Origin: a virus | IMG/VR virus record: IMGVR_UViG_3300025534_000182 | Span: 1 to 64,000 of that record | DNA length: 64,000 nt | Strand: one strand, 5' to 3' | Translations under genes and position numbers: made by a program | Notes under the pieces: generated by a model | What the model was told of the DNA's origin: nothing | The model's input: only the letters and a program-made list of their open reading frames with translations | Databases searched by the model: none | Shown here: positions 44,150 to 44,693 of the stretch, in pieces | Layout of the letters: each line of letters opens with the position of its first letter | How positions within the stretch are numbered: position 1 is the first letter of the stretch

Positions 44150-44183
44150 TTTTAAAAAATAAAAACCCGTATCAAAATACGAG
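44150..44183 (-). terminator. intrinsic terminator just downstream of mazF (hairpin cgtat...atacg plus UUUUUAUUUUUU)
   Basis: Read on the minus strand: ctcgtattttgatacgggtttttatttttt. Confidence 0.6.
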
Positions 44184-44197
44184 TTTAAATTAATATT

Positions 44198-44617
44198 TTA
44201 TGCTCTTTTTCTTCCTAACGACACATCGAGAGCATTCAATACTTTATATATCGCTTCTTTATCAAGCGTTGTTATTTTCTCTTTTAACCTAAGTTTATCA
44301 ATTGTTCTCAATTGTTCTAACATAATAACTGAATCTTTTTCCAAATTATATCTTTCAGCTTTCAGTTCAACATGAGTAGGAAGTTTTGTTTTGTTTTGAG
44401 ATGTTATGGCGGCAACAATAATTGTTGTGCTAAATTTGTTACCAATATCATTTTGAAGTACAAGCACAGGTCTTTTTCCTGATTGTTCGGAACCGACTGT
44501 ACCCCCTGACAGATCAGCCATCCAAATATCCCATTGTCTTACATCTAATTTTTTAATGTATAATTTTTGAATTTCATAACTCCGAGTTGGCCTCATCCTT
44601 TCTGCAACTGCAATCAT
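44198..44617 (-). CDS. mazF: MazF/PemK-family endoribonuclease toxin (EndoA/NdoA-like)
   Basis: GDIWMADL...GSEQSGKRPVLVLQNDIGNKFSTTIIVAAITSQ...LPTHVEL...DSVIMLEQLRTIDKLRL closely matches B. subtilis EndoA (from memory). Confidence 0.8.
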   Translation of the reverse strand: MIAVAERMRPTRSYEIQKLYIKKLDVRQWDIWMADLSGGTVGSEQSGKRPVLVLQNDIGNKFSTTIIVAAITSQNKTKLPTHVELKAERYNLEKDSVIMLEQLRTIDKLRLKEKITTLDKEAIYKVLNALDVSLGRKRA

Positions 44618-44664
44618 CTATATCCTCTCCCTCTATTTTTAGAAACAAAATATTTACTACTATG

Positions 44665-44693
44665 ATTATAGTTTATGTTGGTACATTTAACAA
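44665..44693 (-). promoter_or_regulatory. sigma-A-type promoter for mazF (TTGTTA-17-TATAAT)
   Basis: Read on the minus strand: cttgttaaatgtaccaacataaactataatcat. It lies 45 nt upstream of the AGAGGGAGAGG SD. Confidence 0.5.

Follow-up and report, generated by a model that had tools for sequence, protein, structure and literature searches.

A stand-alone MazF endoribonuclease gene in the lysogeny-control region of a distant SPβ-like phage with UACAUA-enriched lytic genes

The mazF locus

The window analysed here, a 64,000-nucleotide stretch of viral DNA (positions 1 to 64,000 of IMG/VR virus record IMGVR_UViG_3300025534_000182), carries a mazF/endoA-type endoribonuclease gene that is phage-borne and has no adjacent antitoxin gene, as an original prediction made from the sequence had proposed. 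That account is amended here in two respects, as the encoded MazF has an N-terminal extension of about 25 aa and the gene lies in the lysogeny-control region of an SPβ-like phage. Four further points go beyond the original prediction, namely the SPβ-like identity of the phage, the MazF-dependent lysis-lysogeny circuit described for this phage family, a putative LexA box at the mazF promoter-like site and an enrichment of UACAUA. The features of the locus are the following.

44198..44617, minus strand: mazF/endoA-type endoribonuclease gene, 139 aa, monocistronic (open reading frame (ORF) call and homology)
44543..44617, minus strand: N-terminal extension, codons 1-25, MIAVAERMRPTRSYEIQKLYIKKLD, absent from chromosomal MazFs
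44623..44633, minus strand: Shine-Dalgarno sequence GAGGGAGAGGA, 6 nt before the mazF ATG, read from the sequence
44665..44693, minus strand: Sigma-A-type promoter-like site TTGTTA-17-TATAAT, a consensus match with a putative transcription start
44638..44666, plus strand: divergent promoter-like site, whose -10 overlaps the -10 of the mazF promoter-like site
44695..44708: putative LexA (Cheo/SOS) box GGAACAGGCGTTCG, on the mazF strand CGAACGCCTGTTCC, core 44696..44707
44163..44186, minus strand: intrinsic terminator with a 10-bp stem, a 4-nt loop and a T-run, 11 nt after the mazF stop codon

A MazF of the EndoA clade

The close homology to MazF/EndoA that had been claimed for the 139-aa product is borne out, where PF02452 PemK_toxin is matched in Pfam at E=4.7e-33 (114.1 bits, against a curated cut-off of 23.1 bits; residues 27-133 aligned to profile positions 1-108 of 109), PHROG 1936 'MazF-like growth inhibitor' is matched at 3.8e-30, and 71 of 111 residues (64%) are identical to Bacillus subtilis EndoA. 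The top PDB matches, 1NE8, 4MDX and 4ME7, all lie at about 1e-36, and an SH3-like barrel dimer fold would be expected from 64% identity to the solved EndoA; the AlphaFold2 (AF2) model of the phage protein, built on a shallow alignment, is poor (predicted local distance difference test score (pLDDT) 49). In the family and PDB alignments the catalytic pair is kept as R49 and T72, which correspond to EndoA R25 and T48, so that the loss of Arg/Thr by which the reading frame might have proved dead is not seen. Also kept are the RNA-contact positions G42, E44, P50 and N60 (EndoA G18, E20, P26 and N36), which are invariant in the alignments, as well as R104 (EndoA R81/85, an RNA-contact or conserved position), where the roles of the EndoA residues in RNA contact and catalysis are those named previously (PMC8634880). 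From its residues, the phage MazF is judged to be catalytically intact.

A copy of the gene is found in a sister phage, L056, a 73.6-kb metagenome contig with the order repressor, 131-aa ORF, RsfA-like gene (-), MazF and 161-aa ORF. The two mazF genes differ at 14 synonymous and 3 non-synonymous positions (dS 0.17, dN 0.009, dN/dS 0.054, for synonymous and non-synonymous divergence), a pattern by which mazF is judged to be under strong purifying selection and selectively maintained. Decay of a captured mazEF locus into a non-functional remnant could account for the missing antitoxin, for the odd N-terminus and for the substitution of about 10 near-invariant MazF positions (G6->W and the beta1-beta2 loop among them), but this is scarcely credible given that dN/dS ratio over that dS, catalytic and RNA-contact residues that are all intact, and expression signals that are intact and conserved in the sister phage. 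The 5' half of mazF shows no differences between the two phages, and an overlapping RNA was considered as the cause and rejected, since their identity is of a mosaic kind and a nearby stretch of 1.1 kb is just as free of differences.

Among the homologues, the basic N-terminal extension is common only to the phage MazF and its L056 copy. The canonical start region of mazF has no nearby in-frame start codon, and a strong Shine-Dalgarno sequence precedes M1. The AF2 pLDDT over the extension is 28-36 and thus uninformative, and the suggestion that the extension is the remnant of a fused MazE C-terminus was discarded (p=0.19; 19% of shuffles match its best local score).

The closest database relatives, at 66-69% identity, are chromosomal MazFs of Thermoanaerobacterales in acpS/yjeF/alr-mazE-mazF loci, where MazE is of the ribbon-helix-helix (RHH) type. 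A search of 185,579 species genomes gave no relative above 66% identity and none with the N-terminal extension, and the exact phage MazF is present only on three or four metagenome contigs. The GC content of mazF (33%) matches that of the phage (31%) and not that of the closest chromosomal mazF genes (41-48%), and because of this the gene appears to be long-resident and not a recent capture.

UACAUA enrichment in the lytic arm of an SPβ-like phage

The window is collinear with 72-121 kb of Bacillus phage phi3T, with most genes on the minus strand, and its phi3T-ordered matches comprise YopQ, YopR/SroF/MrpR, yorS, yorH, yorJ, yorK (5e-51), nrdI, nrdE, nrdF and thyA, where the repressor is followed by the replication/nucleotide-metabolism arm with its genes ordered as in phi3T 92-121 kb. 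In phmmer searches the YopQ-like protein matches phi3T_96 at 2.6e-61 and the YopR-like protein phi3T_97 at 3.7e-35; the two genes are adjacent, in that order, and serve both as an SPβ-like marker and as the boundary of the UACAUA-rich arm.

36257..38567, minus strand: YopQ (DndB-like) and YopR/SroF/MrpR-like master-repressor genes (phmmer, PF14072, PF22822, PF22823)
1..36200, minus strand: lytic/replication arm, everything downstream of the YopR-like gene, enriched in UACAUA on the sense strand

At the DNA level, megablast of 1.9 kb and of 20 kb gave no similarity to any INPHARED/deposited phage, and a search of IMG/VR for relatives of the flanking genes found none. On these protein matches and their order, the element is assigned to a distant SPβ-like temperate phage.

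A strict UACAUA specificity (U^ACAUA) is common to the MazFs of B. subtilis, Listeria and Staphylococcus aureus (bioRxiv 10.64898/2026.08.06.743204), a 65%-identical MazF of Symbiobacterium also cuts UACAUA (PMC10893535), and the transcripts of phi3T and SPβ have been shown to be enriched in MazF sites (bioRxiv 10.1101/2023.04.27.537455). By analogy with such relatives, which are 64-65% identical, the phage MazF would be expected to cleave U^ACAUA. TACATA was therefore counted on sense strands. In the lytic arm it occurs 49 times versus 12.7-17.6 expected from Markov models of order 1-3 (3.9x), which places it first of 1877 hexamers with an expectation of at least 5, while its reverse complement TATGTA (22 versus 16-21 expected) is not enriched. 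Synonymous-codon shuffles of the same arm gave 21.4 +/- 3.6 where 45 are found (z=6.5; control z=0.7), and the sites fall in all three frames.

The same signal is seen on the sense strand of phi3T 75-128 kb (75 versus 22-31 expected; rank 1/2882) and in the phi3T late genes (27 versus 11-12 expected). Other phage loci that carry MazF (L007, the L008 family, L039 and L040) are 2-2.7x enriched on the mazF-sense strand, again strand-specifically. Of the two negative controls, the lytic genes of phage phi105 (L141) hold one TACATA versus 7.4 expected (rank 3164/3172), and low-GC Bacillota ORFs are depleted (123 versus 185 expected, 0.67x). From the top-ranked enrichment together with the shuffles and the phi105 and host controls, it follows that MazF-sensitivity of the lytic transcripts is a selected property, as in phi3T, and not a by-product of base composition. 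The opposite behaviour of phi105 and the SPβ-like phages suggests two types of B. subtilis phage, one MazF-avoiding and one MazF-wired. Two other explanations of the site statistics were rejected: self-protection by depletion of UACAU, because the pentamer is not depleted (111 versus 82) and one arm holds a strong excess of the hexamer, and RegB-like targeting of early transcripts only, because the phi3T late genes are enriched too.

These counts bear directly on the host-shutoff RNase that the original prediction had listed first, in which an early lytic MazF would degrade host mRNA while phage messages escape. The gene is indeed a stand-alone unit in an early region, in PHROG such genes are classed as 'host takeover', and solo MazF-like genes are also known from the lytic phages Perkons, Bacchae and PMBT24. 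Host shutoff is nevertheless quite unlikely, as it is the phage's own lytic-arm transcripts that are most enriched in the expected site (3-4x) and not depleted, and host ORFs stand at 0.67x, which is the opposite of what such a function calls for unless the specificity differs.

A second hexamer signal, specific to the arm and to the strand, was observed in the remainder of the window. On the minus (sense) strand of 36201-64000 the most over-represented hexamer is (A)TAACAG (49 versus 12 expected), where ATAACAG occurs 32 times versus 3.9 and the reverse complement CTGTTA 3 times versus 3.5. These sites are densest in 44001-64000, lie inside genes and have no wider consensus, and with 5 copies the motif is almost missing from 1-36200. 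They are possibly targets of a second RNase, a polar DNA motif, or even the true site of the phage MazF.

The lysogeny-control region

About 5.6 kb separate mazF from the YopQ/YopR genes, which lie downstream of it, and it sits beside a CI/LexA-type repressor gene that encodes a helix-turn-helix (HTH) domain and an S24 peptidase; phi3T has its arbitrium/AimX/Sro module in this part of the genome. Within this lysogeny-control region, mazF forms a transcription unit of its own. No phmmer match to AimR, AimP or AimX was obtained in the window, and no YosL or SroA/B homologue was detected in about 72 kb (the window and its flanks). The surrounding genes are the following.

44786..45304, plus strand: Myb-like/RsfA-like regulator gene, divergent to mazF (PHROG 16084, transcriptional regulator)
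45303..45324: bidirectional terminator at the edge of the minus-strand region 45330..46530 (sequence scan)
45330..45731, minus strand: 131/133-aa ORF that overlaps the CI/LexA-like repressor gene
45715..46530, minus strand: CI/LexA-like repressor, HTH_3 and Peptidase_S24 (Pfam)
43580..44077, minus strand: gene for a 165-aa (probably 152-aa) protein, downstream of mazF, with its own promoter-like site

The divergent neighbour had been described as an RsfA-like regulator and not a protein of antitoxin type, which agrees with its match to PF13921 (2.8e-6), and it stands beside MazF in the same layout in L056. The 165-aa protein has no match in Pfam, PHROG or PADLOC and, although it is modelled at pLDDT 90, no PDB fold match, while homologues of it are encoded by SPβ-like prophages. 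A promoter-like repeat of 36 nt, whose two copies are 86% identical, was noted at 44123-44158 before the 165-aa gene and at 51611-51646 before a GmrSD_N gene (50478..51590), the product of which matches the PADLOC defence protein NsnA at 6e-37.

Genes of the MrpR-like, integrase-like or HTH kind also adjoin the MazF gene of other large phages and of an SPβ-like prophage in Paenibacillus, in all cases without MazE. In that Paenibacillus xylaniclasticus prophage (L057), which spans about 239-256 kb of contig BIML01000001.1 in GCA_004001065.1, the MazF gene follows GmrSD_N and no RsfA-like gene is near it, and in the independent 163-kb phage L007 mazF is near AbiTii. The IMG/VR loci L008-L038, from phages of about 150 kb, have the order integrase-like gene, divergent HTH_26, MazF and a 97-104-aa ORF (e.g. 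L029, 8619-10666), and in L040 MazF directly precedes an MrpR_N_CB protein. The 97-104-aa ORF of L008-L038 is conserved, begins 0-20 nt after the MazF stop codon and could be an analogue of the Sar antirepressor or a reverse-order antitoxin.

Search for an antitoxin

No antitoxin ORF adjoins mazF on the same strand, either in the 168-bp upstream spacer (44618..44785) or after the stop codon, where the terminator follows. The longest same-strand ORFs wholly contained in the spacer have 11 and 9 codons and no Shine-Dalgarno sequence, in agreement with the claim that no upstream ORF exceeds 11 codons; a 24-codon TTG ORF (44648..44574), also without a Shine-Dalgarno sequence, overlaps the mazF start. 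MazE profiles were built from 4 and then from 34 chromosomal MazEs and run with hmmsearch --max on six-frame translations of about 72 kb, which included 2.4 kb and 5.4 kb beyond the window ends, and phi3T YosL (1e-8) and AimX (1e-6) were found as positive controls. With either profile nothing was obtained at E<=0.3 in the 72 kb, and with the 34-sequence profile nothing at E<=1 in the window or in contigs L001, L052, L053, L056 and L057, the best score of the latter profile in L138 being E=0.39. Thus, no MazE/EndoAI-like ORF, which might have lain just outside the window, was found there. The 34 IMG/VR phage loci that carry MazF likewise gave no match to the MazE profile at E<=1.

Chromosomal loci offer a comparison. 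A profile-recognisable MazE lies upstream in only about 30 of 80 chromosomal mazF loci, and among the genome loci L058-L137 there are many Clostridia alr-mazF loci with no such MazE (e.g. L060, L122, L130 and L135). In Eubacterium yurii (L114/L118) alr is directly followed by mazF, and in the MazE-less Clostridia loci mazF begins about 35-210 nt after alr or has unrelated small acidic ORFs upstream. 'Orphan' MazFs of the EndoA clade may therefore be common outside phages too.

This divergence is also the main argument for an ordinary type II toxin-antitoxin system, serving addiction or abortive infection, whose antitoxin cannot be recognised and would be the 165-aa protein, the 131-aa ORF, the RsfA-like protein or the N-terminal extension itself. 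Antitoxins are highly divergent, as the 30 of 80 loci illustrate, and the small ORF that follows MazF in L008-L038 would fit such an arrangement. Each candidate meets an objection, however. Between mazF and the 165-aa gene there are a terminator and a separate promoter-like repeat, the 165-aa homologue in L057 follows a CI-like repressor 5 kb from the solo MazF of that prophage, and the 165-aa protein has no similarity to the 104-aa ORF found after MazF in other phages, for which reasons it was rejected as a reverse-order antitoxin; the RsfA-like gene runs divergently, and L057 has none near its MazF gene; and the N-terminal extension is basic, unlike MazE tails. A hidden antitoxin is accordingly regarded as unlikely.

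The original prediction had also considered neutralisation in trans, by a distal protein, an RNA or a host antitoxin. An RNA antitoxin or leader element in 44618..44785 does not hold up: the tandem or direct repeat family of a type III (ToxIN-like) system is not found there, Rfam at E<=5 gives only terminator-like noise near 45.3 kb and no RNA family match, and the fold of the mazF leader is not unusually stable (z=-1.15). The distal candidate was the single PF04014 protein in the window, the presence and uniqueness of which are confirmed.

27727..27981, minus strand: orphan AbrB-fold, VapB-like protein, PF04014 (SpoVT/AbrB) at 2e-13

PF04014 is the MazE_antitoxin family and the protein has an acidic C-terminal tail, both of which would suit a MazE. 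Its four closest relatives (64%, 49%, 48% and 53% identity), however, are all encoded immediately upstream of PIN/VapC toxins, the MazFs of the EndoA clade pair with an RHH-type MazE in the chromosomal loci of the nearest relatives, and the AbrB-type MazE of Escherichia coli fails to neutralise MazF of this clade (PMC10893535). The protein was therefore rejected as the MazE of this locus on account of its VapB-PIN context, and its action in trans is very unlikely. No PIN toxin lies beside it in the window, its neighbours being a YAcAr/SLOG protein and a 121-aa protein, and it might act as a regulator or, as a decoy for host VapC toxins, in anti-defence. What is left of neutralisation in trans is the host MazE, which may well neutralise the phage MazF; the 65%-identical Symbiobacterium MazF is cross-neutralised by MazE-bs at a comparable level of divergence (PMC10893535). 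Inter-phage competition, another reading in the original prediction, is likewise a candidate.

Expression signals and the putative LexA box

The promoter-like hexamers, the strong Shine-Dalgarno sequence and the terminator that had been described are all present. Because promoter-like sites are no more frequent in this AT-rich DNA than chance predicts (9 found versus 8.4 expected), it is the position of the mazF promoter-like site alone that speaks for it, while terminator-like sites exceed chance (4 found versus 0.6 expected).

The LexA box ends 2 nt upstream of the mazF -35, matches the Cheo consensus CGAACN4GTTCG at 13 of 14 positions and holds the only GAACN4GTTC core in the window; sites with up to 2 mismatches are at chance level (11 versus 9). 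The box is conserved in the sister contigs L001 and L056, and a perfect LexA box precedes the yolD-mazF pair of phage L007. The chance that a core lands in the 168-bp spacer is about 0.0015, by arithmetic from the shuffles and in a post hoc test. In SPβ-like phages, LexA boxes have been shown to control the Sar antirepressor and the induction switch (bioRxiv 10.1101/2025.11.27.690993).

The possible control by LexA is relevant to a further explanation, namely prophage defence or superinfection exclusion, in which the MazF of a lysogen, buffered by host MazE, would destroy the transcripts of incoming SPβ-like phages without cell death. It has been shown that phi3T and SPβ, when they lack their antitoxins, are restricted by host MazEF and that no abortive death is involved (bioRxiv 10.1101/2023.04.27.537455). 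The moron-like architecture of the gene, with its own promoter-like site and terminator next to repressor genes, fits exclusion, as do the NsnA/GmrSD-like defence gene in the same arm, the position of MazF after GmrSD_N in L057 and near AbiTii in L007, and the enrichment of TACATA in all MazF-carrying phage loci examined. While exclusion is possible on these grounds, it is made doubtful by the LexA box at the promoter, which would keep the gene off in an unstressed lysogen, and by the fact that no PADLOC model matches mazF.

Other features of the window

A TnpB-only IS605-family element (30667..31713) appears to split a yorS-like 5'(3')-deoxyribonucleotidase gene (30322-31998, minus strand), both fragments of which, 31801..31998 and 30322..30483, match phi3T yorS. 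A full Y1-Tnp plus TnpB copy is present at 52476..53977, and a further TnpB lies just beyond the window start (L138). Repeats of 40-46 nt, 78-79% identical, occur at 39947-40038, 48206-48251 and 52435-52473, one of them at the 3' end of a TnpB gene, and could represent IS200/605 ends, or remnants resembling omega-RNA, that are dispersed over the early arm.

An identical 25-nt element with a perfect 16-bp palindrome, TGTTATTATAATAACA, is found at 56488-56503 and 60266-60281, directly upstream of a DUF932 gene and of an ankyrin-repeat gene, and is likely a shared operator or early promoter. The window also strongly avoids CCWGG (2 versus 15.8 expected) and GCATC/GATGC (4 versus 16), which is consistent with restriction-site avoidance.

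Comparison with known systems

The nearest characterised protein is EndoA/MazF (ndoA, ydcE) of the B. subtilis alr-mazE-mazF locus, with which the phage MazF shares the catalytic Arg/Thr and the RNA-contact residues. The phage gene differs in that it has no upstream RHH MazE and is monocistronic with its own promoter-like site and terminator, while the protein differs in its 25-aa N-terminal extension, its altered beta1-beta2 loop and G6->W. Solo genes of the PHROG 1936 kind are similar in that a PemK/MazF domain protein is encoded in a phage with no annotated MazE adjoining. Examples include Psychrobacillus phage Perkons ORF37, Enterocloster phage PMBT24 and Lactobacillus phage Bacchae gp166, which are 34-52% identical and belong to lytic or other phage types, and none of the examples has been linked to a MazF-site bias or a lysogeny module. 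In the literature searched, no study of a phage-encoded MazF was found.

The closest functional parallel is the phi3T circuit, in which host MazF promotes lysogeny, AimX and YosL are MazE-like inhibitors and the Sro proteins sequester MazE (PMC10769878). The window phage resembles phi3T in YopQ, YopR/SroF, the collinear replication arm, the top-ranked, strand-specific UACAUA enrichment and a MazF of the same clade. It is unlike phi3T in that phi3T encodes MazE mimics or binders and uses host MazF, whereas the window phage encodes MazF itself, has a CI/LexA-type S24 repressor and has no AimR/AimP/AimX, YosL or SroA/B detectable in the 72 kb.

A second parallel is the LexA-controlled Sar antirepressor (phi3T_99/SPβ YopT), which also has an SOS box upstream of a small stand-alone gene of the lysogeny region; in L008-L038, where an integrase-like gene is followed by a divergent HTH gene, MazF even occupies the slot that Sar has in phi3T/SPβ. 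Sar, however, is a DNA-mimic antirepressor and not an RNase (bioRxiv 10.1101/2025.11.27.690993), and the genes linked to the box in the window are mazF and the RsfA-like regulator, 7 kb from the YopR-like gene.

The sequence-specific endoribonuclease RegB, encoded by phage T4, inactivates the early mRNAs of T4 itself at the motif GGAG. The window phage would be like T4 in concept, with a phage-borne, sequence-specific RNase whose principal substrates are phage transcripts, but the fold and the motif are unrelated, and RegB drives the early-to-middle transition of a virulent phage and not a lysis-lysogeny decision.

Proposed function of the phage MazF

The explanation preferred here, tentatively, is that this is a phage-internalised MazF that acts on UACAUA-rich phage transcripts, both its own and those of related superinfecting phages, and holds back lytic development. 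The enzyme would cut U^ACAUA as its 64-65%-identical relatives do, and its main substrates would be the UACAUA-rich lytic transcripts of the window phage and of related superinfecting phages. Its activity would restrain lytic development and favour lysogeny, the role that host MazF plays for phi3T, so that in a mirror image of phi3T the phage would have internalised the RNase in place of reliance on the host copy. Host LexA would probably gate the transcription of mazF through the box next to the -35, and host MazE may buffer a MazF of this clade. A dedicated antitoxin may not be needed because of the 6-nt specificity, the avoidance of the site by host genes, the probable LexA gating and the possible buffering by host MazE; since host genes avoid UACAUA, a MazF specific for 6 nt would be only mildly harmful to the host.

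Several observations weigh against this explanation. The specificity is only inferred, and the beta1-beta2 loop reads SGGTVGSEQS in the phage protein versus the consensus SP-VVGSEQG, while G6->W and about 8 other near-invariant positions are also changed. The part of the window that holds mazF and the repressors (36201-64000) is not significantly depleted in TACATA (10 versus 11 expected). The LexA evidence is a single site, and at least one core is present somewhere in 46% of shuffled windows; because the mazF promoter-like site overlaps the divergent one, the box could equally regulate the RsfA-like gene. The 72 kb that were scanned leave out the late/structural part of the genome, which might encode an inhibitor, antitoxins diverge fast so that many chromosomal mazF loci are without a recognisable MazE, and host and lifestyle are deduced from metagenome contigs alone. 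The timing logic conflicts as well, in that MazF induced by the SOS response would cut the very transcripts that induction needs. For this reason the box may belong to the RsfA-like gene; alternatively, MazF may be a brake or threshold, or may serve chiefly in exclusion.

Exclusion of superinfecting phages overlaps with the preferred restraint of lytic development and differs from it mainly in whose transcripts matter. It ranks first among the alternatives, followed by a toxin-antitoxin system with a hidden antitoxin, host shutoff, the AbrB-fold protein acting in trans and, last, a dead remnant.

The MazF-lysogeny circuit and the site enrichment were already known for phi3T and SPβ with host MazF, and solo phage MazF-like genes had been annotated (PHROG 1936). 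What is new is a member of the SPβ architecture that encodes its own MazF and retains the site enrichment, with neither arbitrium nor the mimics. So far, MazF in phage biology has been framed as a host toxin against a phage antitoxin mimic, as in phi3T. More tentatively still than the function proposed above, the 'toxin' may have been repurposed as a regulator, where a LexA-gated, antitoxin-free MazF gates UACAUA-saturated lytic transcripts and disables related superinfecting phages, which would make the MazF switch portable and independent of host mazEF and arbitrium. Were this the case, carriage of mazF and carriage of aimX/yosL would be anticorrelated alternatives across SPβ-like phages, and this anticorrelation, the cleavage motif, SOS control and a lysogenisation phenotype are predictions that can be tested. 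The rank of the UACAUA hexamer, which is top in the window phage and phi3T and near-bottom in phi105, provides a simple genomic signature for MazF-wired phages. If the proposal is true, sensitivity to MazF would be an ancient, selected feature in the design of lytic transcripts in this family of phages, a type II toxin could be kept without an antitoxin given narrow specificity and gated transcription, and the 'orphan toxins' of phages may be regulators and not weapons.

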